A stretch of 64,000 nucleotides of DNA from Escherichia coli. GTDB taxonomy: Bacteria; Pseudomonadota; Gammaproteobacteria; Enterobacterales; Enterobacteriaceae. The notes beneath the pieces are model-generated. The model did not search any database. It had not been told where the DNA came from and worked only from the letters and a program-made list of their open reading frames with translations. A program made the position numbers and the translations under genes. Shown here piece after piece: positions 6,209-58,793 of the stretch. The stretch lies in the NCBI RefSeq assembly GCF_003334355.1, contig NZ_QOWP01000005.1; one strand, given 5' to 3'. The first letter of the stretch is position 1, and each line of letters begins with the position of its first letter.

Positions 6209-7612
6209 TTAAACAATGCGAAACGCATCGACTAATACACAGCGACGCAGACGGACAAACGTACGCGCGCTGGTTACCCCTTCACCGGTTGGCGTGGTGA
6301 TGGTCATGGTGGTCCAGCCTTCCCCGCCCAGCCCCAGCCCGGCAATGCACGGTCCGTTCTTAACGAAAATGCTGGTATCAATAGCATTCGCCATCTGGTT
6401 CATGTTTTCGATGTTGCGCGAGTGCATTGCCGCCGTGTGGTGGCAACCGCCTTCCAGTTTCACCGCCAGCGCAATGGCATCCGCCACGTTGGCGACGCGC
6501 ACGACGGGCAGCACCGGCATCATCAGTTCGGTCACGGCAAACGGATGTTCTGCAGTGGTTTCCACAAACAGCAAACGCGTTTCTTGCGGCACGTTCAGGC
6601 CGATTGCCGCCGCGATTTTCGCCGCATCGCGACCAACCCAGTCACGGCTGACGGTGCCTTTTCCGCGCTCGTCGATATTTTTCAGCAACACCGGTTGCAG
6701 CTGCTGCGCCTGTTCTGCGGTCAGTTTCACCGCGTGCTGGCCTTCCATCAGACGCATCAGTTCATCGGCTACGCTATCAACAACAATCAGTACCTTTTCG
6801 TCGGCACAAATGATGTTGTTATCGAAAGAAGCGCCTTTGACGATGGACTGAGCGGCACGGGCGAGGTCGGCGGTTTCATCCACCACTACCGGCGGGTTGC
6901 CAGCGCCTGCGGCAATCAGACGTTTATTGGTGTGTTTACGCGCCGCTTCTACTACCGCTTCGCCGCCGGTCACCACCAGAAGGCCGATGCCCGGAAACTT
7001 GAACAAACGCTGCGCGGTTTCGATATCCGGATTTGCCACAGTAACCAGTAAGTTTTCCGGCCCGCCTGCGGCAACAATCGCCTGGTTGAGCAGCGTGATC
7101 GCCCGCTGGGAGACTTTTTTCGCCGCCGGATGCGGGGCAAAAATGACGCTGTTGCCCGCGGCAATCAGGCTGATGGCGTTATTAATTACGGTTGCCGCCG
7201 GGTTAGTGGACGGAGTTACCGAAGCCACCACGCCCCAGGGCGCGTTTTCAATTAAAGTCAGGCCGTTGTCGCCGGTCAGCACCTGCGGAGAGAGACACTC
7301 AACGCCTGGCGTGCCGCGCGCCTGAGCGACGTTTTTGGCAAATTTATCTTCAACGCGGCCCATGCCGGTTTCACTGACGGCAAGTTCCGCTAAATCTCTG
7401 GCGTGTTTTTCGCCTGCCTCACGAATGGCAGCAATGGCTAACTGGCGCATTGCCACGCTTTTTAACCCTTGCTGGGCGACTTTGGCTGCCGCAACGGCGT
7501 CATCCAGGGACGCGAAAACGCCCATCTCATGAACGGCGGCGGGCGGCATGTCACTGCTTTGCATTTTCAGCAGTACCGCTTTCACCACCTGTTCAATATC
7601 CTGTTGATTCAT
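6209..7612 (-). CDS. eutE: CoA-acylating acetaldehyde dehydrogenase EutE
   Basis: 467-aa ORF; aldehyde dehydrogenase family; recognised as EutE. Confidence 0.93.
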   Translation of the reverse strand: MNQQDIEQVVKAVLLKMQSSDMPPAAVHEMGVFASLDDAVAAAKVAQQGLKSVAMRQLAIAAIREAGEKHARDLAELAVSETGMGRVEDKFAKNVAQARGTPGVECLSPQVLTGDNGLTLIENAPWGVVASVTPSTNPAATVINNAISLIAAGNSVIFAPHPAAKKVSQRAITLLNQAIVAAGGPENLLVTVANPDIETAQRLFKFPGIGLLVVTGGEAVVEAARKHTNKRLIAAGAGNPPVVVDETADLARAAQSIVKGASFDNNIICADEKVLIVVDSVADELMRLMEGQHAVKLTAEQAQQLQPVLLKNIDERGKGTVSRDWVGRDAAKIAAAIGLNVPQETRLLFVETTAEHPFAVTELMMPVLPVVRVANVADAIALAVKLEGGCHHTAAMHSRNIENMNQMANAIDTSIFVKNGPCIAGLGLGGEGWTTMTITTPTGEGVTSARTFVRLRRCVLVDAFRIV

Positions 7613-8349: not shown

Positions 8350-9366
8350 TCATTCAACCAGTGTTTGTAAACTGCTTTCGCGGTTCACTTCTGTCTGACG
8401 CGGCACAGCTGCCACCAGCGCCAGCTCGATAATTTCCTGCACGCTACAACCACGAGAGAGATCGTGCATCGGCGCGGCAAGTCCTTGTATCAGTGGCCCG
8501 ACGGCACGATATCCGCCGAGTCGTTGTGCGATTTTGTAACCAATATTTCCGGCTTCCAGCGACGGAAAAACCATCACATTGGCCTTGCCCTGTAGCGGGC
8601 TGGCAGGCGCTTTTTGCGCCGCCACTTCCGGCACGAAGGCGGCGTCAAACTGTAACTCGCCATCCACCACCAGCTTTGGTGCGCGCTCACGGACGATTTC
8701 TGTCGCCTGCTGGACGTTAGCAACACAGGGGTGACGGGCGCTACCATTGCTGGAAAACGACAGCATCGCCACGCGCGGCTCTTCTCCGGTGATGGCGCGC
8801 CAGGTTTCGGCACTGGCAAGCGCGATATCCGCCAGCTGCGCCGCCGTCGGCTGTGGCACCACGCTGCAATCGGCAAAGCCCAACGCCGGGCCGCTGTACT
8901 GTGGCAACATCAGGAAAATGGAAGAGAGCGTTTTACAGCCTGGCTGCAAGCCGATAATGCGTAATCCGGCACGCAGCACATTTGCCGTGGAAGAGAGGTT
9001 GCCCGCGATACAGACATCCGCTTTACCGGCGCTGACCATTGCTGCGGCGAACATCAGAGGGTCGGTAAGTTTTTCCAGCGCATCCGGCGGCGTTTTTTCG
9101 CCCGCGCGGGCCAGCCAGCGATGAGCAAATTCTTCCCGCATTGCGAGGTTGCCATGCGGATCAATCACCTGTAGCCCGTCCATCGCCACGCCGTGACTGA
9201 GCGCAAACTGACGAAGTTCAAACGGATTGGCGACCAGAATGGGCGTTGCCAGACCTTGTTGATGTAAATATTGCGCGGCTTTCAGCACACGTTGGTCTAA
9301 CGCATCCGGAAAAACCACTCTGGCGGGCGCTCGCAACGCCAGTTCACGACAACGTTCAATAATCAT
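8350..9366 (-). CDS. eutD: phosphotransacetylase EutD
   Basis: 338-aa ORF; Pta-like sequence; overlaps eutM region by 4 nt in the track. Confidence 0.93.
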
Positions 9367-10165
9367 TGCGTTCCCCCAGTCGTTGTTGGATCTGCTTCAC
9401 CGTTAGCGGCTGCTTCGTTACGCTCAGGATCATCATCACGTAGACCGTGCTGGAAAGGCGGTTCAGCGCCTGCAAAATGTCCGGGCGTAATACTTCAAAG
9501 CTGCGGGTGATAAAGACCTGCGCCGCTACGGTTTCGGTTTCCCGCACTTTGGTGCGTAGCAGATTGAGCAACGCAGCATCGCGCCCGTGGCTGGCTTCCG
9601 GCACCAGATGATCGTGGTCGAGATAGCGCAGCGGCTGATGAGAAAGCCGATGCAGATCTTCGTCAGAAAGCCCGACAATCGCCTGGCAGCCCAGCGGTTC
9701 CCCCAGCGCATCGGCGCGCATAATGTTGCCAAGACGCGAACGGATATCCGCCAGCCACGGCTGCCACGGTTCCGCCAGTTCAATTTGCAGCCACACTACC
9801 AGCGCAATGGTGCTGTCGAGAACCGCGCGAAAACCCAGACGCGGATCGCTTTTGGCGACCATTTTTTCCGCCGACAGGTGAGTCAGCGTATCCGGCTTTT
9901 TTGCCACCGGCTGGCGACACAGTTCGCAGCACGCCTGCGGATGTTCATCGCTACTGGTCAGCCCATGAACGGGCTGCGGCTGCTGCTGTTCATCGTCAAC
10001 AAACAGGCGGCCCTGCTCGTCAATAAACTTGATGCGCAGATGGCGGCTTTCCAGCAACTCCCGGGCAGAGGGCGTCAGGCGACTGTCCGCAGGGAGATGG
10101 ATCTCTGCGCCTTCGCTGAGCGTATGGTTCGCTCTTAGCCATGCTTCGGTGATGAAATCTTTCAT
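9356..10165 (-). CDS. eutT: EutT corrinoid adenosyltransferase
   Basis: [22 protein letters not shown] recognised as EutT; exact start not verified. Confidence 0.88.
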
Positions 10166-37060: not shown

Positions 37061-37678
37061 ATGAACCGCTTTGTGGTGGCCGAACCACTGTGGTGTACAG
37101 GATGTAATACCTGTCTCGCTGCCTGTTCGGACGTGCATAAAACGCAAGGTTTACAGCAACACCCGCGCCTGGCCCTGGCGAAGACGTCAACAATCACTGC
37201 CCCTGTCGTGTGTCATCACTGTGAGGAAGCCCCTTGCCTGCAGGTCTGCCCGGTCAATGCCATCTCTCAGAGGGATGATGCGATCCAACTCAACGAAAGC
37301 CTCTGTATTGGCTGCAAGCTTTGCGCCGTGGTCTGCCCATTTGGCGCAATCAGCGCTTCAGGAAGCCGTCCGGTGAATGCCCATGCGCAATATGTTTTTC
37401 AGGCTGAAGGCTCACTCAAAAACGGCGAAGAAAACGTGCTGCCCCAACATGCGTTGCTGCGCTGGGAACCGGGTGTCCAGACCGTCGCGGTGAAATGCGA
37501 CCTGTGTGATTTCTTGCCAGAAGGTCCGGCCTGCGTTCGCGCTTGCCCGAATCAGGCGTTACGGCTGATCACCGACGATAGCCTGCAACGTCAGATGAAA
37601 GAAAAACAGCGCCTTGCCGCAAGCTGGTTTGCCAATGGCGGGGAGGATCCCCTTTCCCTCACTCAGGAGCAACGCTAA
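37061..37678 (+). CDS. hyfA: hydrogenase-4 ferredoxin-type subunit HyfA
   Basis: ORF track trimmed to MNRFVVAEPLWCTGCNTC (205 aa); multiple 4Fe-4S Cys motifs. Confidence 0.92.
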   Translation: MNRFVVAEPLWCTGCNTCLAACSDVHKTQGLQQHPRLALAKTSTITAPVVCHHCEEAPCLQVCPVNAISQRDDAIQLNESLCIGCKLCAVVCPFGAISASGSRPVNAHAQYVFQAEGSLKNGEENVLPQHALLRWEPGVQTVAVKCDLCDFLPEGPACVRACPNQALRLITDDSLQRQMKEKQRLAASWFANGGEDPLSLTQEQR

Positions 37679-39696
37679 TGGATGCCCTGCAATTATTAAC
37701 CTGGTCGCTGATCCTCTATCTGTTTGCCAGTCTGGCTTCGCTGTTTTTACTCGGTCTGGACAGACTGGCTATTAAGCTTTCCGGCATCACATCGCTGGTG
37801 GGCGGCGTGATTGGCATCATCAGCGGAATTACGCAATTACATGCTGGTGTAACTTTAGTCGCCCATTTTGCCACCCCTTTTGACTTTGCCGATTTAACCC
37901 TGCGAATGGATAGCCTCTCGGCATTTATGGTGCTGGTTATCTCCTTGCTGGTGGTGGTTTGTTCGCTCTATTCATTGACTTATATGCGCGAATACGAGGG
38001 CAAAGGCGCGGCGGCGATGGGCTTCTTTATGAATCTTTTCATCGCATCGATGGTTGCCCTGCTGGTGATGGACAACGCTTTTTGGTTCATCGTGCTGTTT
38101 GAAATGATGTCGCTGTCTTCCTGGTTTCTGGTCATTGCCAGGCAGGATAAAACGTCGATCAACGCTGGCATGCTCTACTTTTTTATCGCCCACGCCGGAT
38201 CGGTGCTGATAATGATCGCCTTCTTGCTGATGGGGCGCGAAAGCGGCAGCCTCGATTTTGCCAGTTTCCGCACGCTTTCACTTTCTCCGGGGCTGGCGTC
38301 GGCGGTGTTCCTGCTGGCCTTTTTCGGTTTTGGCGCGAAAGCCGGGATGATGCCGTTGCACAGCTGGTTGCCGCGCGCTCACCCTGCCGCACCATCGCAC
38401 GCTTCAGCGTTGATGTCTGGCGTAATGGTCAAAATCGGTATTTTCGGCATCCTGAAAGTGGCGATGGATCTGCTGGCGCAAACGGGTTTGCCGCTGTGGT
38501 GGGGCATTCTGGTGATGGCGATCGGCGCAATCTCCGCGCTCCTGGGCGTGCTGTATGCGCTGGCGGAACAGGATATCAAACGGCTACTGGCCTGGAGTAC
38601 CGTCGAAAACGTCGGCATTATTTTGCTGGCGGTCGGTGTGGCGATGGTCGGTCTGTCACTGCACGACCCGCTGCTCACCGTGGTTGGACTGCTCGGCGCA
38701 CTGTTTCATCTGCTCAACCATGCGCTGTTCAAAGGGCTGCTATTTCTCGGCGCGGGCGCGATTATTTCGCGTTTGCATACCCACGACATGGAAAAAATGG
38801 GGGCACTGGCGAAACGGATGCCGTGGACAGCCGCAGCATGCCTGATTGGTTGCCTGGCGATATCAGCCCTTCCTCCGCTGAATGGTTTTATCAGCGAATG
38901 GTACACCTGGCAGTCGCTGTTCTCACTAAGTCGTGTGGAAGCCGTAGCGCTACAACTTGCGGGTCCTATTGCTATGGTAATGCTGGCAGTCACTGGTGGG
39001 CTGGCAGTAATGTGCTTCGTAAAAATGTACGGTATTACTTTCTGTGGTGCGCCGCGCAGTACACACGCTGAAGAGGCACAGGAAGTGCCAAATACGATGA
39101 TCGTCGCCATGCTACTGCTCGCGGCACTCTGCGTATTAATTGCGCTTAGTGCCAGTTGGCTGGCACCGAAGATAATGCATATTGCCCATGCGTTTACCGA
39201 TACCCCTCCCGTCACTGTCGCCAGCGGAATAGCACTTGTACCCGGCACGTTTCATACACGGGTCACTCCTTCATTACTGTTGCTGTTACTACTGGCGATG
39301 CCTTTGCTGCCTGGCCTTTACTGGCTGTGGTGTCGTTCGCGCCGCGCAGCGTTTCGTCGCACAGGAGATGCCTGGGCATGCGGCTACAGCTGGGAAAATG
39401 CGATGGCCCCGTCAGGCAATGGCGTGATGCAGCCGCTGCGTGTGGTCTTTTCTGCGCTATTTCGTCTACGACAACAGCTCGACCCTACGCTGAGGCTAAA
39501 TAAAGGTCTTGCGCACGTCACCGCCAGGGCTCAGAGCACAGAACCCTTCTGGGATGAGCGGGTGATCCGCCCCATCGTGAGCGCCACCCAACGGCTGGCC
39601 AAAGAAATACAGCATCTGCAAAGCGGCGACTTTCGTCTCTATTGCCTGTATGTGGTCGCCGCACTGGTTGTGCTGCTAATCGCTATTGCCGTCTAA
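37678..39696 (+). CDS. hyfB: hydrogenase-4 membrane subunit HyfB (NuoL/Mrp antiporter-like)
   Basis: 672-aa polytopic ORF. Confidence 0.93.
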   Translation: MDALQLLTWSLILYLFASLASLFLLGLDRLAIKLSGITSLVGGVIGIISGITQLHAGVTLVAHFATPFDFADLTLRMDSLSAFMVLVISLLVVVCSLYSLTYMREYEGKGAAAMGFFMNLFIASMVALLVMDNAFWFIVLFEMMSLSSWFLVIARQDKTSINAGMLYFFIAHAGSVLIMIAFLLMGRESGSLDFASFRTLSLSPGLASAVFLLAFFGFGAKAGMMPLHSWLPRAHPAAPSHASALMSGVMVKIGIFGILKVAMDLLAQTGLPLWWGILVMAIGAISALLGVLYALAEQDIKRLLAWSTVENVGIILLAVGVAMVGLSLHDPLLTVVGLLGALFHLLNHALFKGLLFLGAGAIISRLHTHDMEKMGALAKRMPWTAAACLIGCLAISALPPLNGFISEWYTWQSLFSLSRVEAVALQLAGPIAMVMLAVTGGLAVMCFVKMYGITFCGAPRSTHAEEAQEVPNTMIVAMLLLAALCVLIALSASWLAPKIMHIAHAFTDTPPVTVASGIALVPGTFHTRVTPSLLLLLLLAMPLLPGLYWLWCRSRRAAFRRTGDAWACGYSWENAMAPSGNGVMQPLRVVFSALFRLRQQLDPTLRLNKGLAHVTARAQSTEPFWDERVIRPIVSATQRLAKEIQHLQSGDFRLYCLYVVAALVVLLIAIAV

Positions 39697-39706
39697 GGAA
39701 ATCACC

Positions 39707-40653
39707 ATGAGACAAACTCTTTGCGACGGATATCTGGTCATTTTTGCGTTAGCACAGGCCGTGATTCTGCTGATGCTAACCCCACTTTTTACGGGTATTT
39801 CCCGGCAGATACGCGCGCGTATGCACTCCCGCCGCGGGCCGGAGATCTGGCAGGATTATCGCGATATCCACAAACTGTTTAAACGCCAGGAAGTTGCGCC
39901 TATATCTTCAGGTCTGATGTTCCGCCTGATGCCGTGGGTATTAATCAGCAGCATGCTGGTGCTGGCGATGGCCCTACCACTATTTATTACCGTTTCCCTT
40001 TTGCGGGCGGCGGCGATCTGATCACCCTTATCTATCTTCTTGCCCTGTTTCGTTTTTTCTTTGCTCTTTCAGGGCTGGATACCGGAAGCCCGTTTGCGGG
40101 AGTCGGTGCCAGTCGCGAGTTGACGCTCGGCATTCTGGTCGAACCCATGCTCATTCTCTCACTGCTGGTATTGGCGCTGATAGCGGATTCCACGCATATC
40201 GAGATGATCAGCAATACGCTGGCGATGGGCTGGAACTCGCCGCTAACCACCGTACTGGCGTTACTGGCCTGTGGTTTTGCCTGCTTCATAGAGATGGGAA
40301 AAATTCCCTTTGATGTTGCTGAAGCAGAACAGGAATTACAGGAAGGCCCGCTGACCGAATATTCCGGTGCCGGGCTGGCGTTGGCGAAATGGGGACTGGG
40401 GCTGAAACAGGTCGTGATGGCAGCACTGTTTGTGGCCCTGTTTCTGCCCTTTGGGCGCGCGCAAGAACTTTCTCTCACCTGCCTGCTGACTTCACTTGTC
40501 GTTACGCTGCTCAAGGTTTTGCTGATTTTTGTACTGGCTTCAATCGCAGAAAACACGCTGGCACGCGGGCGTTTTTTACTCATTCACCATGTGACCTGGC
40601 TTGGCTTCAGCCTTGCTGCGCTTGCATGGGTCTTCTGGTTAACCGGTCTGTAA
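39707..40653 (+). pseudogene. hyfC: hydrogenase-4 membrane subunit HyfC (NuoH/HycD-like), disrupted by a -1 frameshift at ~39996-40002
   Basis: Two consecutive ORFs in different frames (39686..40021 and 39934..40653) together cover a HyfC-like protein; span is 947 nt, one short of the 948 expected for 315 aa; shift lies in a CCCTTTT tract. Confidence 0.8.
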
Positions 40654-40669
40654 GGAGCACTGACGGAAT

Positions 40670-42108
40670 ATGGAAAATCTTGCTCTGACGACGTTAATGC
40701 TGCCTTTTATCGGCGCACTGGTCGTTTCGTTTTCGCCACAACGTCGGGCCGCCGAATGGGGGTTTTGTTCGCCGCACTGACCACGCTGTGCATGTTGTCG
40801 CTGATCTCCGCGTTTTATCAGGCCGATAAAGTTGCCGTCACGTTGACGTTGGTCAACGTGGGGGATGTGGCATTGTTTGGCCTGGTCATTGATCGCGTGA
40901 GTACGCTGATTCTGTTTGTGGTGGTGTTTCTCGGTTTGCTGGTCACGATCTACTCCACGGGTTATCTGACGGATAAAAATCGCGAACACCCGCATAACGG
41001 CACGAATCGTTATTACGCATTTTTGCTGGTGTTTATCGGCGCGATGGCGGGACTGGTACTCTCCTCGACGCTGCTCGGTCAGTTGTTGTTTTTTGAAATT
41101 ACGGGCGGCTGCTCCTGGGCGTTGATCAGTTATTACCAGAGCGATAAAGCGCAGCGTTCAGCACTAAAAGCGTTACTTATCACTCATATCGGCTCGTTGG
41201 GGTTGTATCTTGCCGCCGCCACGCTGTTTTTGCAGACCGGAACGTTTGCGCTTAGCGCGATGAGCGAGTTACACGGCGACGCACGTTATCTGGTTTATGG
41301 CGGCATCCTGTTTGCCGCGTGGGGGAAATCGGCCCAGCTACCGATGCAAGCGTGGCTACCGGACGCAATGGAAGCGCCAACACCGATCAGCGCCTATCTC
41401 CACGCCGCATCGATGGTGAAAGTGGGCGTTTACATTTTTGCCCGCGCCATTATCGACGGCGGCAATATCCCGCATGTGATTGGCGGCGTTGGCATGGTCA
41501 TGGCCCTGGTCACCATTCTTTATGGATTTCTGATGTATTTACCACAGCAGGATATGAAGCGGTTGCTGGCCTGGTCGACCATCACTCAACTTGGCTGGAT
41601 GTTCTTCGGCTTGTCGCTCTCCATCTTCGGCTCGCGGCTGGCGCTGGAGGGTAGCATCGCCTACATCGTCAACCACGCGTTCGCTAAAAGCCTGTTTTTC
41701 CTTGTAGCAGGTGCGCTGAGTTACAGCTGCGGCACGCGCTTGTTGCCGCGTCTGCGTGGCGTATTGCACACCCTGCCGTTGCCTGGCGTGGGTTTCTGCG
41801 TGGCAGCGCTGGCAATTACCGGCGTGCCGCCGTTCAACGGCTTCTTCAGTAAATTCCCGCTGTTTGCTGCCGGTTTTGCGTTGTCAGTGGAGTACTGGAT
41901 CCTGCTGCCCGCCATGATTCTGCTGATGATTGAATCGGTCGCCAGTTTCGCCTGGTTTATTCGCTGGTTTGGTCGCGTCGTGCCTGGCAAACCGAGCGAG
42001 GCCGTCGCCGATGCCGCACCGCTGCCAGGGTCAATGCGCCTGGTGTTGATTGTACTGATTGTGATGTCGCTGATTTCCAGCGTAATCGCCGCGACCTGGT
42101 TGCAGTAA
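40670..42108 (+). pseudogene. hyfD: hydrogenase-4 membrane subunit HyfD (NuoL/M-like), disrupted by a -1 frameshift at ~40758-40762
   Basis: ATG at 40670 with RBS reads MENLALTTLMLPFIGALVVSFSPQRRAAEW then hits a stop; the remainder continues in another frame (track ORF 40756..42108); span is 1439 nt, one short of 1440 for 479 aa; shift lies in a G5 run. Confidence 0.8.
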
Positions 42109-42119
42109 GGAGATGATGA

Positions 42120-42770
42120 ATGACCGGTTCTATGATCGTAAATAATCTGGCGGGACTGATGATGCTGACATCACTGTTTGTGATTAGCGTCAAAAGCTAT
42201 CGCCTGTCATGCGGATTTTACGCCTGCCAGTCACTGGTGCTGGTGTCTATTTTCGCCACCCTCTCGTGCCTGTTCGCCGCAGAGCAACTGCTGATCTGGT
42301 CCGCCAGCGCCTTTATCACCAAAGTGCTGCTGGTACCGTTAATCATGACTTACGCTGCACGAAATATTCCCCAGAACATCCCGGAAAAAGCGTTATTCGG
42401 TCCGGCAATGATGGCACTGCTCGCGGCGTTAATTGTCCTGCTTTGCGCATTTGTCGTTCAGCCCGTGAAGCTACCGATGGCTACCGGGCTGAAACCGGCG
42501 CTGGCGGTAGCGTTAGGTCATTTTCTGCTTGGCCTGCTGTGCATTGTCAGCCAGCGCAATATCCTGCGGCAAATTTTTGGTTACTGCCTGATGGAAAACG
42601 GCTCCCATCTGGTGCTGGCGCTTCTTGCCTGGCGAGCACCGGAACTGGTGGAAATAGGTATCGCTACCGACGCCATCTTCGCCGTCATTGTGATGGTGTT
42701 ACTGGCAAGAAAAATATGGCGTACCCACGGCACGCTGGACGTGAACAACTTGACCGCGCTGAAGGGATAA
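42120..42770 (+). CDS. hyfE: hydrogenase-4 membrane subunit HyfE
   Basis: 216-aa hydrophobic ORF. Confidence 0.92.
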
Positions 42771-42774
42771 TGAG

Positions 42775-44355
42775 ATGAGTTATTCTGTGATGTTCGCTTT
42801 ACTCCTGCTCACGCCGCTGCTTTTTTCGCTGCTCTGTTTTGCCTGCCGGAAACGGAGACTTTCTGCGACTCGCACGGTGACCGTATTACATAGCTTAGGG
42901 ATCACACTGCTGCTGATTCTGGCACTCTGGGTGGTCCAAACTGCCGCTGATGCAGGAGAAATATTCGCTGCGGGACTGTGGCTTCATATTGATGGTCTGG
43001 GCGGTTTGTTCCTCGCCATTCTTGGTGTGATTGGCTTTCTCACCGGTATTTACTCGATTGGCTACATGCGTCATGAAGTGGCACACGGCGAGCTTTCACC
43101 CGTTACGCTGTGCGATTACTACGGTTTCTTCCATCTGTTTTTGTTCACCATGCTGCTGGTTGTTACCAGCAATAACCTGATTGTGATGTGGGCGGCGATC
43201 GAAGCCACCACCTTAAGCTCGGCGTTTCTGGTAGGCATTTACGGTCAGCGTTCATCGCTGGAAGCTGCATGGAAGTACATCATTATTTGTACTGTTGGTG
43301 TCGCTTTTGGTCTGTTCGGTACCGTGCTGGTATACGCCAACGCCGCCAGCGTTATGCCGCAGGCAGAAATGGCGATATTCTGGAGCGAGGTTCTTAAGCA
43401 ATCGTCCTTGCTTGACCCAACATTAATGCTGTTGGCCTTTGTGTTTTTGCTAATTGGCTTTGGTACCAAAACCGGGCTATTTCCCATGCACGCCTGGCTG
43501 CCGGATGCTCACAGTGAAGCGCCGAGTCCGGTCAGCGCCCTGCTCTCCGCCGTATTGCTGAACTGCGCGCTGTTGGTGCTGATTCGCTATTACATCATTA
43601 TTTGCCAAGCCATCGGCAGCGATTTCCCCAACCGGTTGTTGCTCATCTTCGGCATGTTGTCGGTTGCCGTGGCGGCATTTTTCATTCTGGTACAGCGGGA
43701 CATTAAGCGTCTGCTGGCGTACTCCAGCGTGGAGAACATGGGGCTGGTCGCGGTGGCGCTAGGCATTGGCGGGCCGCTGGGAATTTTTGCCGCGCTGCTG
43801 CACATCTTAAACCACAGTCTGGCAAAAACGCTGCTGTTCTGCGGTTCCGGCAATGTACTGCTCAAGTACGGCACGCGCGATCTCAACGTCGTCTGTGGGA
43901 TGCTCAAAATCATGCCATTTACCGCCGTGCTGTTTGGCGGCGGTGCGCTGGCGCTGGCAGGGATGCCGCCCTTCAACATTTTTCTTAGCGAATTTATGAC
44001 CATTACCGCCGGACTGGCACGTAATCACCTGCTGATTATCGTCCTGCTGTTATTGCTGTTAACGCTGGTGCTGGCGGGCCTGGTACGGATGGCAGCGCGG
44101 GTGTTAATGGCGAAACCGCCGCAGGCCGTTAACCGGGGTGATCTCGGCTGGTTGACCACCTCGCCAATGGTGATTCTGCTGGTCATGATGCTGGCGATGG
44201 GAACGCATATTCCACAACCTGTCATCAGGATCCTGGCGGGCGCTTCCACTATAGTCCTCTCAGGGACGCACGACCTGCCTGCACAACGTAGCACCTGGCA
44301 TGATTTTTTGCCTTCAGGCACCGCATCTGTTTCGGAGAAACACAGTGAACGTTAA
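42775..44355 (+). CDS. hyfF: hydrogenase-4 membrane subunit HyfF (NuoN/M-like)
   Basis: 526-aa polytopic ORF. Confidence 0.92.
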
Positions 44356-46060
44356 TTCATCGTCAAATCGTGGCGAAGCGATTCTCGCCGCCCTGAAAAC
44401 GCAGTTCCCCGGCGCGGTGCTGGATGAAGAGCGACAAACGCCTGAACAGGTCACCATTACGGTGAAAATCAATCTGCTGCCTGACGTTGTACATTATCTT
44501 TATTATCAACATGATGGCTGGCTTCCGGTCCTGTTTGGCAACGACGAGCGGACACTTAACGGTCATTACGCGGTTTATTATGCCCTTTCTATGGAAGGGG
44601 CCGAAAAATGCTGGATCGTAGTGAAGGCACTGGTCGATGCCGACAGTCGGGAGTTTCCGTCAGTCACACCGCGCGTCCCTGCCGCGGTCTGGGGCGAGCG
44701 AGAAATTCGCGATATGTACGGGCTGATTCCGGTTGGCCTGCCGGATCAGCGTCGCCTGGTGTTGCCCGATGACTGGCCGGAAGATATGCATCCGCTGCGC
44801 AAAGATGCGATGGATTATCGACTGCGCCCTGAACCGACGACTGATTCCGAAACGTATCCGTTTATCAATGAGGGCAACAGCGATGCGCAGGTGATCCCTG
44901 TCGGCCCGCTGCATATCACCTCCGATGAACCGGGTCACTTCCGCTTGTTTGTGGATGGCGAGCAAATTGTCGATGCTGATTACCGCCTGTTTTATGTCCA
45001 TCGCGGCATGGAGAAACTGGCAGAAACGCGGATGGGCTACAACGAAGTGACCTTCTTATCAGACCGCGTGTGTGGGATTTGCGGTTTTGCCCACAGTGTG
45101 GCCTATACCAACTCGGTTGAAAATGCACTGGGGATTGAGGTGCCGCAACGAGCGCATACCATTCGCTCGATTCTGCTGGAAGTCGAACGGCTACACAGTC
45201 ATTTGCTCAACCTTGGCCTCTCCTGCCATTTTGTTGGTTTTGATACCGGCTTTATGCAATTTTTCCGCGTGCGGGAAAAGTCGATGACGATGGCGGAATT
45301 GCTGACCGGGTCGCGTAAAACCTACGGTCTGAATCTGATTGGTGGTGTTCGCCGCGATATTCTCAAAGAGCAACGTCTGCAAACGCTGAAACTGGTGCGC
45401 GAGATGCGCGCCGACGTGTCGGAGCTGGTAGAGATGCTGCTTGCTACGCCGAATATGGAACAACGCACTCAGGGCATTGGCATTCTCGACCGACAAATCG
45501 CCCGTGATTATAGCCCTGTAGGGCCGCTGATCCGCGGCAGTGGTTTTGCCCGTGATTTGCGCTTTGATCACCCCTACGCCGACTACGGCAATATTCCAAA
45601 AACACTGTTTACCTTCACCGGCGGCGATGTTTTCTCCCGCGTGATGGTCCGTGTCAAAGAGACGTTTGATTCGCTGGCAATGCTGGAATTTGCCCTCGAC
45701 AACATGCCGGATACCCCGCTGCTGACCGAAGGCTTTAGCTATAAACCTCACGCATTCGCGCTGGGCTTTGTTGAAGCGCCACGCGGTGAAGACGTGCACT
45801 GGAGCATGCTCGGTGATAACCAAAAATTGTTCCGCTGGCGCTGTCGTGCCGCCACCTACGCCAACTGGCCAGTGCTGCGTTACATGCTACGCGGCAATAC
45901 CGTTTCTGACGCACCGCTGATTATCGGTAGCCTTGATCCCTGCTACTCCTGTACCGACCGTGTGACGCTGGTAGATGTGCGCAAGCGCCAGTCAAAAACC
46001 GTGCCGTATAAAGAGATCGAACGCTACGGCATTGATCGTAACCGTTCGCCGCTGAAGTAA
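44345..46060 (+). CDS. hyfG: hydrogenase-4 large (catalytic [NiFe]) subunit HyfG
   Basis: Track ORF 44300..46060; start placed at GTG preceded by GGAG ([11 protein letters not shown]); exact start uncertain; C-terminal DPCYSCTDR NiFe-ligand motif. Confidence 0.85.
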
Positions 46061-46069
46061 GGACAGAAG

Positions 46070-46615
46070 ATGCTGAAGTTACTGAAAACTATTATGCGCG
46101 CCGGAACCGCGACGGTGAAATATCCCTTCGCGCCACTGGAGGTCAGCCCAGGCTTTCGCGGGAAACCGGACCTGATGCCCAGCCAATGTATTGCCTGCGG
46201 TGCCTGCGCCTGTGCTTGTCCGGCAAATGCGCTGACTATCCAGACCGACGACCAGCAAAATTCGCGCACCTGGCAGCTCTATCTGGGGCGTTGTATTTAC
46301 TGCGGACGTTGTGAAGAAGTGTGCCCGACCAGAGCCATCCAGCTTACCAATAACTTTGAACTGACCGTCACCAATAAAGCCGATCTCTATACCCGCGCGA
46401 CGTTCCATCTACAACGTTGCAGCCGTTGCGAACGCCCGTTTGCCCCGCAAAAAACCGTCGCACTGGCTGCTGAATTGTTGGCACAGCAACAAAATGCGCC
46501 ACAAAACCGCGAAATGTTGCGGGCGCAAGCGAGCGTCTGCCCGGAGTGCAAACAACGCGCGACGCTGATCAACGACGATACAGATGTACCGCTGGTGGCT
46601 AAGGAGCAGCTATGA
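46070..46615 (+). CDS. hyfH: hydrogenase-4 Fe-S subunit HyfH
   Basis: 181-aa ORF with two CxxCxxCxxxCP motifs. Confidence 0.92.
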
Positions 46616-47370
46616 GTCCAGTGCTTACACAACATGTCAGCCAGCCCATCACGCTGGATGAGCAAACGCAAAAGATGAAGCGGCATTTGCTACAGGATAT
46701 CCGTCGCTCGGCTTACGTTTATCGCGTCGATTGCGGCGGCTGCAACGCCTGTGAAATCGAAATTTTTGCCGCCATCACACCCGTATTCGACGCAGAACGT
46801 TTTGGCATTAAGGTTGTTTCATCACCGCGTCACGCCGATATTTTGTTATTTACTGGCGCAGTCACCCGGGCGATGCGTATGCCTGCACTTCGGGCGTATG
46901 AGTCTGCCCCCGATCATAAAATTTGTGTTTCCTACGGCGCGTGCGGTGTCGGCGGCGGTATTTTCCACGATCTCTACAGCGTCTGGGGCGGTAGCGACAC
47001 CATTGTCCCCATTGATGTTTGGATCCCCGGCAGCCCGCCAACACCGGCCGCCACCATTCACGGTTTCGCCGTGGCGCTCGGTTTGCTGCAACGGAAGATT
47101 CACGCGGTGGATTATCGCGATCCCACCGGGGTGACTATGCAACCGTTGTGGCCGCAGATCCCGCCATCACAGCGTATCGCCATTGAGCGAGAAGCGCGGC
47201 GGCTGGCGGGCTATCGTCAGGGGCGAGAAATTTGCGATCGGCTCCTGCGCCATTTAAGCGACGATCCTACAGGAAATCGGGTTAACACCTGGTTGCGCGA
47301 TGCCGACGATCCACGTCTCAATAGTATCGTTCAGCAACTCTTTCGCGTACTCCGGGGGTTACATGACTGA
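46612..47370 (+). CDS. hyfI: hydrogenase-4 small subunit HyfI (NuoB-like)
   Basis: 252-aa ORF; CGGCNAC motif. Confidence 0.92.
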
Positions 47371-47776
47371 AGAGTGCGGGGAAATTGTTTTCTGGACGCT
47401 GCGAAAAAAGTTTGTCGCCAGTAGCGACGAGATGCCGGAACACAGCTCTCAGGTAATGTATTACTCGCTGGCTATCGGTCATCACGTTGGCGTGATTGAT
47501 TGTCTGAATGTCGCCTTCCCCTGCCCACTGACGGAATACGAAGATTGGCTTGCACTGGTCGAAGAGGAGCAAGCCCGACGTAAGATGCTGGGGGTGATGA
47601 CTTTTGGTGAGATTGTTATTGACGCCAGCCACACCGCCTTGTTGACCCGGGCATTCGCGCCACTGGCGGATGACGCGACGTCTGTGTGGCAGGCGCGTAG
47701 CATTCAATTCATTCATCTGTTGGATGAAATTGTGCAGGAACCGGCCATCTATCTGATGGCCAGAAAAATTACGTGA
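47363..47776 (+). CDS. hyfJ: hydrogenase-4 component HyfJ (HycH-like maturation/processing protein)
   Basis: ORF track trimmed to [11 protein letters not shown] (137 aa); overlaps hyfI stop. Confidence 0.88.
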
Positions 47777-47805
47777 GAAGGATTTCTCATTAATAAGGAC
47801 TGTTG

Positions 47806-49818
47806 ATGGCTATGTCAGACGAGGCGATGTTTGCCCCGCCGCAAGGAATAACAATTGAAGCGGTAAACGGAATGCTCGCGGAGCGGTTAGCGCAGAAACA
47901 CGGTAAGGCGTCTTTATTACGCGCCTTCATCCCGCTGCCGCCGCCGTTCAGCCCGGTACAACTTATTGAACTGCATGTTCTCAAAAGCAACTTCTATTAC
48001 CGCTACCATGATGATGGCAGCGATGTGACGGCAACAACAGAGTATCAGGGCGAGATGGTCGATTATTCGCGTCACGCCGTCCTTCTCGGCAGTAGTGGAA
48101 TGGCGGAGCTACGCTTTATTCGCACCCACGGCAGTCGTTTTACTCCCCAGGATTGCACACTGTTTAACTGGCTGGCGCGGATAATCACCCCGGTTCTGCA
48201 ATCATGGCTCAATGATGAAGAACAGCAGGTGGCGCTGCGTTTGCTGGAGAAAGATCGCGATCATCATCGGGTACTGGTTGATATTACTAATGCAGTGCTG
48301 TCACATCTTGATCTCGACGATCTGATCGCTGACGTCGCTCGTGAGATCCATCATTTTTTCGGTCTGGCTTCAGTCAGTATGGTACTGGGCGATCATCGAA
48401 AGAACGAGAAGTTTAGCCTGTGGTGCAGCGATCTTTCTGCCTCACATTGTGCGTGTCTGCCACGCAATATGCCTGGCGACAGTGTATTGCTGACACAAAC
48501 GCTACAAACCCGACAACCGACCTTGACGCACCGTGCAGACGATCTGTTTCTCTGGCAACGCGACCCGTTATTACTCTTACTTGCATCTAACGGCTGCGAA
48601 TCTGCGCTCCTTATACCGCTTACCTTTGGCAACCATACACCGGGTGCATTGTTGCTGGCGCATACCTCTTCCACTCTCTTTAGTGAGGAAAACTGCCAGC
48701 TACTACAACACATAGCCGATCGCATCGCTATTGCCGTTGGCAATGCCGATGCCTGGCGTAGCATGACCGATTTGCAGGAAAGTTTGCAGCAAGAAAACCA
48801 CCAGCTTAGCGAGCAGCTCCTTTCGAATCTGGGCGTCGGTGACATTATCTATCAAAGCCAGGCAATGGAAGACCTGCTCCAGCAGGTAGATATTGTGGCG
48901 AAGAGCGACAGTACAGTGTTGATTTGTGGTGAAACCGGAACCGGCAAAGAGGTGATCGCCAGAGCGATCCATCAACTTAGCCCGCGACACGACAAGCCGC
49001 TGGTCAAAATCAACTGCGCTGCCATCCCCGCCAGTCTTCTGGAAAGTGAGTTATTCGGTCATGACAAAGGGGCGTTTACTGGTGCGATTAATACCCATCG
49101 TGGTCGTTTTGAAATTGCCGATGGCGGCACGTTGTTTCTCGATGAAATTGGCGATCTGCCGTTAGAACTTCAGCCTAAACTGCTGCGCGTATTGCAGGAA
49201 CGGGAGATTGAGCGTCTCGGCGGGAGTAGAACGATCCCGGTGAATGTCAGAGTCATTGCCGCCACCAACCGTGATTTGTGGCAAATGGTTGAAGATCGCC
49301 AGTTTCGCAGCGATCTCTTTTATCGCCTGAATGTCTTCCCACTGGAATTGCCGCCGCTACGCGACCGTCCGGAAGATATCCCTCTTTTAGCAAAGCATTT
49401 CACGCAAAAAATGGCGCGCCATATGAATCGTTCAATTGACGCCATCCCGACCGAGGCGCTACGCCAGTTGATGTCGTGGGACTGGCCGGGCAACGTGCGC
49501 GAGCTGGAAAACGTGATTGAGCGAGCGGTACTGCTGACTCGCGGTAACAGTCTGAATTTACATCTTAATGTCCGACAAAGCCGTTTACTGCCGACGCTAA
49601 ATGAAGATTCAGCGCTTCGCAGTTCAATGGCGCAGTTGCTGCACCCGACGACGCCAGAGAATGACGAAGAAGAACGTCAGCGCATTGTTCAGGTATTGCG
49701 AGAAACCAATGGCATTGTTGCCGGGCCCCGTGGCGCGGCGACACGATTAGGGATGAAGCGCACCACGCTGCTGTCACGAATGCAGCGTCTGGGGATCTCG
49801 GTTCGCGAGGTGTTGTAA
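47806..49818 (+). CDS. hyfR: sigma-54-dependent transcriptional activator HyfR (FhlA-like)
   Basis: ORF with GAF-like N-terminus, AAA+ domain ([14 protein letters not shown]) and C-terminal HTH. Confidence 0.92.
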
Positions 49819-49839
49819 TCTGCTTTTGCAGGAGTATGC

Positions 49840-50688
49840 ATGAGCAACAAACTCTCTTTCGACTTGCAGTTGAGCGCCAGAAAAGCGGCAATCGCTGAAC
49901 GGATTGCCGCCCATAAAATTGCCCGCAGTAAAGTGTCGGTCTTTTTAATGGCGATGTCCGCTGGCGTGTTTATGGCGATCGGATTTACTTTTTACCTTTC
50001 CGTTATCGCCGATGCCCCGTCTTCACAGGCATTAACCCATCTGGTGGGCGGCCTTTGCTTTACACTCGGCTTTATTTTGCTGGCGGTTTGCGGCACCAGC
50101 CTGTTCACCTCGTCGGTAATGACGGTGATGGCAAAAAGTCGGGGCGTTATTAGTTGGCGAACTTGGCTGATTAACGCACTTCTGGTGGCCTGCGGTAATC
50201 TGGCAGGTATTGCCTGTTTCAGTTTGTTAATCTGGTTTTCCGGGCTGGTGATGAGTGAAAACGCGATGTGGGGAGTCGCGGTTTTACACTGCGCCGAGGG
50301 CAAAATGCATCATACATTTACTGAATCTGTCAGCCTCGGCATTATGTGCAATCTGATGGTTTGCCTGGCGCTTTGGATGAGTTATTGCGGGCGTTCGTTA
50401 TGCGACAAAATCGTCGCCATGATTTTGCCCATCACCCTGTTTGTCGCCAGTGGCTTTGAGCACTGTATCGCCAATTTGTTTGTGATTCCGTTCGCCATTG
50501 CCATTCGCCATTTCGCCCCTCCCCCCTTCTGGCAACTGGCGCACAGTAGCGCAGACAATTTTCCGGCACTGACGGTAAGCCATTTTATTACCGCCAATCT
50601 GCTCCCGGTGATGCTGGGTAATATTATCGGCGGTGCAGTGCTGGTGAGTATGTGTTATCGGGCTATTTATTTACGTCAGGAATCCTGA
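49840..50688 (+). CDS. focB: formate channel FocB (FNT family)
   Basis: 282-aa polytopic ORF. Confidence 0.92.
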   Translation: MSNKLSFDLQLSARKAAIAERIAAHKIARSKVSVFLMAMSAGVFMAIGFTFYLSVIADAPSSQALTHLVGGLCFTLGFILLAVCGTSLFTSSVMTVMAKSRGVISWRTWLINALLVACGNLAGIACFSLLIWFSGLVMSENAMWGVAVLHCAEGKMHHTFTESVSLGIMCNLMVCLALWMSYCGRSLCDKIVAMILPITLFVASGFEHCIANLFVIPFAIAIRHFAPPPFWQLAHSSADNFPALTVSHFITANLLPVMLGNIIGGAVLVSMCYRAIYLRQES

Positions 50689-58778: not shown

Positions 58779-58793
58779 TGCCCCGTAGTTAAA

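Follow-up and report, generated by a model that had tools for sequence, protein, structure and literature searches.

A frameshifted hyfC allele inherited in an Escherichia coli lineage and its place in the decay of the hydrogenase-4 operon

The hyfC gene in the stretch of Escherichia coli DNA analysed here (64,000 nt, hereafter the window) has lost a single base, and the loss is best explained as a vertically inherited loss-of-function frameshift, the second hit in a dispensable hyf operon that was already decaying, a reading to which we give a probability of about 0.93. When intact, hyfC encodes a membrane subunit of hydrogenase-4 (FHL-2) that is homologous to HycD and NuoH. Judged from its sequence, the copy in the window (39707..40653, plus strand) is a pseudogene of the HyfC/HycD/NuoH family and would not be a functional member of it; the family requires an uninterrupted ORF of ~315 codons, and here the frame breaks after codon 96. 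The hyfC frameshift is already known, in that the gene is annotated as a pseudogene in RefSeq. This annotation is the sole record of the hyfC and hyfD frameshifts that was found, and full-text literature searches returned no paper on either of them or on the 48-bp difference in hyfG described below.

The gene begins with an ATG at 39707 and ends with a TAA at 40651-40653, a length of 947 nt, compared with 948 nt (315 aa) for hyfC of K-12 MG1655 (b2483). The upstream frame reads ...LPLFITVSLLRAAAI and ends at a TGA (40019-40021), and the downstream frame, which is -1 relative to the upstream one, reads ...FPFAGGGDLITLIYLL... and stays open to the native stop. The alignment holds a single gap, GTTTCCCCTTTTGCG in K-12 versus GTTTCCCTTTTGCG in the window, and the missing base is a C. 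Upon counting of the tract in alignments with K-12, BL21(DE3) and ATCC 8739, the C4 of K-12 is found as C3 in the window (39996..39998, plus strand), followed by T4 at 39999-40002. The premature TGA of the shifted frame comes after 96 native and 8 aberrant codons and gives a 104-aa product. Re-insertion of the C restores a 315-aa ORF with 0 internal stops and 5 amino acid differences from K-12; the frame is thus disrupted amid high identity, the nucleotide sequence being 98% identical to that of K-12 with the one 1-bp gap. Since the frameshift is read from direct sequence comparison and involves no statistical signal, chance is not at issue. The original prediction had described a split of hyfC by a one-base deletion in a C3T4 context, with a 947-nt span from start to stop and a length of 315 aa given for K-12 HyfC, and all of these details hold against the K-12 alignment and the MG1655 annotation. 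On the minus strand inside hyfC there is also an antisense ORF (40032-40583, 183 aa). Serine, alanine and arginine abound in its translation, and K-12 has it open to the same extent; it is probably no more than a shadow ORF, arising from the G+C richness of the membrane gene on the other strand.

The surroundings of the gene are those of the E. coli chromosome, with the order eutB-eutA ... dapA-gcvR-bcp-hyfABCDEFGHIJR-focB-yfgO-bepA ... ppk-ppx, and window positions 1342-64000 are collinear with K-12 MG1655 2,565,481-2,628,095 at 99.2% identity. Gene by gene, hyfC occupies the same position between hyfB and hyfD in hyfABCDEFGHIJR-focB as in K-12. Upstream, hyfA and hyfB (37061..39696, plus strand) are intact, with 0 indels and 0 internal stops in the gene-by-gene alignment to K-12, and downstream of hyfD the genes hyfE, F, G, H, I, J, R and focB (42120..50688, plus strand) are all open, hyfG being present in a 571-aa form. 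Three of the seven indels that separate the window from K-12 fall in hyf genes (hyfC, hyfD and hyfG), and the frame is broken in hyfC and hyfD only. Elsewhere in the window, a partial eutB on the minus strand (1-1341; NCBIfam EutB, E 8e-198) directly adjoins eutA (1342-2745), which indicates that this strain lacks CPZ-55, the cryptic prophage found beside eutA in K-12. In eutT (9356-10165, minus strand) a 1-bp difference from K-12 at 9371, nine bases from the 3' end, gives an open ORF of 269 aa versus 267 aa in K-12 and a longer overlap with eutD. A +1/-1 indel pair relative to K-12 at 6620-6624 in eutE, four bases apart, is compensated locally and keeps the frame, and at 58781, between purN and ppk, a run of C right behind the purN stop codon is one base shorter than in K-12.

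The next gene, hyfD, which encodes a NuoL/M/N-like antiporter-type subunit (40670..42108, plus strand), is a pseudogene as well, with 1439 nt versus 1440. Its frameshift lies 760 bp downstream of the hyfC lesion and was absent from the original prediction. Where K-12 has GAATGGGGGGTTTT the window has GAATGGGGGTTTT, and alignment with K-12 places the 1-bp deletion in a tract of five Gs (40758..40762, plus strand; G6 in K-12) that is followed by TTTT. Frame 0 of hyfD stops at 40778-40780, after 36 codons; 450 codons of the new frame follow without a stop from an ATG at 40756, and no obvious ribosome-binding site was found upstream of this internal ATG. In RefSeq hyfD is 'frameshifted' in BL21(DE3), ATCC 8739 and PSS-12, and an exact 78-mer for the G5 allele was found in 989 of 4284 genomes, ~3x the count of the C3 allele of hyfC.

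What the hyfC deletion removes can be seen from the repaired protein. In profile searches repaired HyfC matched Pfam PF00146 NADHdh (E 6.2e-56, residues 18-312) and HycD of formate hydrogenlyase-1 (PDB 7Z0S chain D; E 3.8e-92, residues 11-312), and it aligned more weakly with MbhM and with NuoH/ND1 chains; the NCBIfam NuoH models matched below their cut-offs, as is expected for a paralogue. Members of the HycD/NuoH/ND1 family are core membrane subunits at the junction with the peripheral arm. The break lies immediately before the stretch that is most conserved between HyfC and HycD (GDLITL.YL.A..RFFFA.SGLDTGSPF), and the 104-aa product, which keeps only the first 96 native residues, misses ~two thirds of a HycD/NuoH-type subunit, including also the EAEQEL.EGP stretch.

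The position of the break bears on whether the two halves could still work as a functional split gene, with the 104-aa N-terminal fragment joining a C-terminal fragment that starts translation on its own to form a working subunit. In favour of this, 239 codons of the downstream frame follow without a stop from a GTG at 39934, and the frame still matches NuoH-type profiles. However, no Shine-Dalgarno-like sequence precedes this GTG, the ATGs at 40147, 40204 and 40225 or the other candidate starts, whereas the native starts of hyfC and hyfD have one; moreover, the gene would be cut directly before its most conserved stretch, and the following gene, hyfD, is also broken. We consider a functional split gene very unlikely.

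Full-length HyfC could in principle also be made by recoding, i.e. by a programmed -1 ribosomal frameshift or by transcriptional slippage at C3T4. The -1 relation of the downstream frame, the 88-nt overlap of the two frames and the otherwise undamaged ORF after repair would suit such a mechanism, and low-level, non-programmed suppression of frameshifts is known in E. coli. The signals of a programmed event are absent: a scan found no in-frame slippery heptamer of the form X_XXY_YYZ in the overlap zones of hyfC (39934-40021) or hyfD, and the 100 nt after the site (MFE -24.7 kcal/mol) form no more stable a fold than shuffled sequences do, with z = -1.35 in a test that is blind to pseudoknots. 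For slippage of RNA polymerase, much longer runs than C3 and T4 would be needed. Moreover, the two-frame layout is not conserved, as the protein is encoded in a single frame in at least 3291 of 4297 genomes and is annotated as intact in K-12 and O157:H7. A recoded gene is therefore, in our estimation, extremely improbable, and loss of function by an inherited frameshift stays the preferred reading.

The inheritance of the deletion is documented by its distribution. Megablast of hyfC against 5426 complete E. coli genomes found the gene in 4297 and no copy in 1129, and the best matches also span 947 bases in the subject genome. Exact matches to a 78-mer centred on the site place the C3 allele in 305 of the 4297 hyfC-bearing genomes, and exact matches to a 79-mer place the intact K-12 allele in 3291; such exact-match allele counts are lower bounds, and they are inflated by the many laboratory derivatives of BL21/REL606. 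Carriers of C3 include BL21(DE3), REL606, BL21-Gold, C41/C43, ATCC 8739 and strain C, and come from humans, pigs, chickens, mice, dogs, cattle, birds (egret) and water. In all eight C3 genomes whose RefSeq annotation was examined (BL21(DE3), ATCC 8739, YDMW_2, PSS-12, CP53, 19SZHZ713Rt, EC23HZZ201 and 23CRST017), hyfC is a 'frameshifted' pseudogene.

The carriers share not only the deletion but a haplotype. Nine C3 genomes were aligned, namely the window, BL21, ATCC 8739, PSS-12, YDMW_2, CP53, 19SZHZ713Rt, EC23HZZ201 and 23CRST017, and they differ at 6 sites over the 2.4 kb of hyfC-hyfD, so that the same lesion sits on nearly identical sequence in independent genomes, with 305 exact matches overall. 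All nine carry G5 in hyfD. The only widespread difference among C3 genomes is a synonymous A/G at 39982, on account of which a 95-nt probe reaching upstream over this site has 200 rather than 305 exact matches: A is present in 200 genomes, and ~105 have another state there or nearby, which is G in both that were sampled. The C4 version of the local haplotype (C at 39974, G at 39982) has no exact match among the 4297 genomes, and the immediate ancestor is thus unobserved. The closest complete genome, PSS-12, differs at 8 sites over 24 kb, and two of these are hyfC sites; among the sampled strains the SNP at 41541 in hyfD is common to the window and PSS-12 only, and neither this SNP nor the one at 40395 changes an amino acid once the frames of hyfD and hyfC are repaired.

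The order of the two lesions can be read from the reverse comparison. Three genomes were sampled for G5, and in two of them, 120899 and EC361, hyfC is intact at 948 nt. Since G5 is commoner than C3 and occurs together with an intact hyfC, the hyfC deletion is best read as the later hit, an order derived from allele counts and from 12 sampled genomes, and not from a tree of whole genomes. The most economical account is that C3 arose once, in a population that was already G5, and was then passed on clonally. The operon bears further lesions in strains 120899 and EC361: both carry a 208-bp deletion in hyfD, and EC361 carries an additional 1-bp hyfD deletion and a frameshifted hyfB (further lesions at 1451-2681 of the 120899 locus sequence, and at 1-476 and 1451-2680 of the EC361 locus sequence).

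The same haplotype data speak to a phase-variable contingency switch, in which the tract would toggle between C3 and C4 and turn hydrogenase-4 off and on. The hyfC mutation is indeed a change of homopolymer length, and hyfD shows a similar one, G6 to G5 before TTTT. However, C3 occurs on a single haplotype that shows one synonymous variant, and a C4 revertant of the local haplotype is absent from the 4297 genomes, so that haplotype analysis rules out recurrent or phase-variable mutation. Runs of 3-6 bases are in any case too short for high-rate slippage, and the probability left to a switch is negligible. Finally, although short homopolymers such as the C3T4 at the break are places where long-read and pyrosequencing platforms err, a miscount of a true CCCC in sequencing or assembly has practically no chance of being the cause, as the identical allele is present in 305 complete assemblies from many laboratories, including BL21(DE3), REL606 and ATCC 8739, is linked to a specific haplotype, and stands in a window with no general excess of homopolymer indels, just 7 relative to K-12 in 62.6 kb, and both the allele counts and this low indel density rule out an artefact. 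The original prediction had left the choice between genuine inactivation and a homopolymer error; the former stands, with the additions that the lesion is a lineage marker rather than private to this strain and that it adjoins a probably older hyfD frameshift, and the latter is dropped.

The inherited loss of function that we favour has the following course. A C was lost from CCCC in hyfC, most simply by replication slippage, in an ancestor of the E. coli lineage to which B (BL21, REL606), C and ATCC 8739 belong. The reading frame shifts after Ser96, runs through 8 wrong codons and stops, leaving a presumably non-functional fragment of 104 aa. The other 630 nt of hyfC probably go untranslated; hyfD would then lose its translational coupling, and polarity on the genes downstream may result. 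The persistence of the lesion would reflect weak selection on hyf in E. coli, and such weak selection is suggested by the 1129 of 5426 genomes without hyfC, by the several different lesions in circulation and by the literature (PMC7384014). According to that work, the E. coli hyf cluster has poor native expression and misses an accessory gene, and in Pectobacterium atrosepticum deletion of hyfDEF leaves H2 production unaffected, while deletion of hyfBCDEF reduces it to ~5% (PMC7384014). By analogy with Pectobacterium, a core enzyme resembling FHL-1 might have survived the hyfD frameshift on its own, and the hyfC frameshift, which would remove a core subunit, may be the more damaging of the two. 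Almost no further decay of hyfC and hyfD followed the frameshift, and the substitutions are too few to show relaxed selection.

A further difference in the operon concerns hyfG. The window hyfG (44345-46060) encodes 571 aa, and the K-12 gene, which encodes 555 aa, is without 48 bp (window 45500-45547) that lie between two copies of the 10-bp direct repeat GCCCGTGATT. The 16 HyfG residues absent from K-12 align gap-free to HycE (7Z0S_E: FSNVGPMVRASGHARD), and the core of the segment, GPxxRxSG..D.R, is conserved in HycE, in MbhL and in complex-I 49-kDa/ND7 chains; this conservation marks the K-12 form as derived. With an exact 40-nt probe for the junction the K-12 form was found in 2113 genomes, and with a segment probe the 48-bp segment was found in 2007, so that about half of the hyf-bearing genomes share the K-12 form. 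In O157:H7 PV15-279 every hyf gene is intact and HyfG has 571 aa. Finney et al. 2020 reported that neither promoter replacement nor HycE-tail fusions ever gave Hyd-4 H2 production in K-12, and concluded that there were 'additional, unknown, biosynthetic problems' (PMC7654741). We propose, as a hypothesis from the sequence comparison, that the HyfG deletion is a candidate cause of this failed activation.

Taken across complete genomes, the operon is absent from ~21%, hyfD is frameshifted in at least 989, hyfC in addition in 305 of the latter, and the hyfG deletion is present in at least 2113 including K-12. It is possible, though we hold it only tentatively and think it rather doubtful, that these are independent lineage-specific lesions, the hyfC frameshift being one of them, by which most E. 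coli cannot make hydrogenase-4. If that were true, hyfC and not hyfD would be the decisive hit in the lineage of the window, given that hyfDEF is dispensable for H2 production in Pectobacterium; and if, moreover, the HyfG deletion is inactivating, only lineages like O157:H7, with every hyf gene intact and a 571-aa HyfG, would be the E. coli in which Hyd-4 activity should be sought. The reference K-12 operon is itself not the intact form, its hyfG being without 16 conserved residues, which offers a testable reason why Hyd-4 activity has long gone undetected in K-12, and this hyfG observation is the only part of the analysis that might repay experiment. As for the hyfC frameshift, this strain, like BL21(DE3), REL606, C and ATCC 8739, would be unable to assemble hydrogenase-4, and hyf phenotypes reported in the backgrounds of BL21(DE3), REL606, C or ATCC 8739 would need another explanation. 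The C3 allele can serve as a clean lineage marker, and it illustrates how an operon decays in steps, hyfD having been hit first and hyfC second.

Compared with known genes, the window hyfC is closest to the hyfC pseudogenes of BL21(DE3) (ECD_RS25295), ATCC 8739 (ECOLC_RS06410) and PSS-12 (AABK13_RS20710), which have the same 947-nt C3 allele one or two bases off that of the window, the same hyfD G5 and the same operon context. It differs from them by the SNP at 40395, synonymous in the repaired frame, with which 0 of the 4297 genomes match it exactly, and BL21(DE3) has in addition a CAG to TAG change at the penultimate codon of hyfD (window-equivalent 42103). The intact HyfC of K-12 MG1655 (b2483) and of O157:H7 (WP_001301932.1) is orthologous and has the same position in the operon, but is encoded with CCCC in a single 948-nt ORF, in contrast to the CCC and premature stop of the window. 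HycD (7Z0S_D), with which repaired HyfC aligns over residues 11-312, and NuoH/ND1 are further relatives, but the hyfC of the window can yield only the first 96 native residues and would work like none of these proteins.
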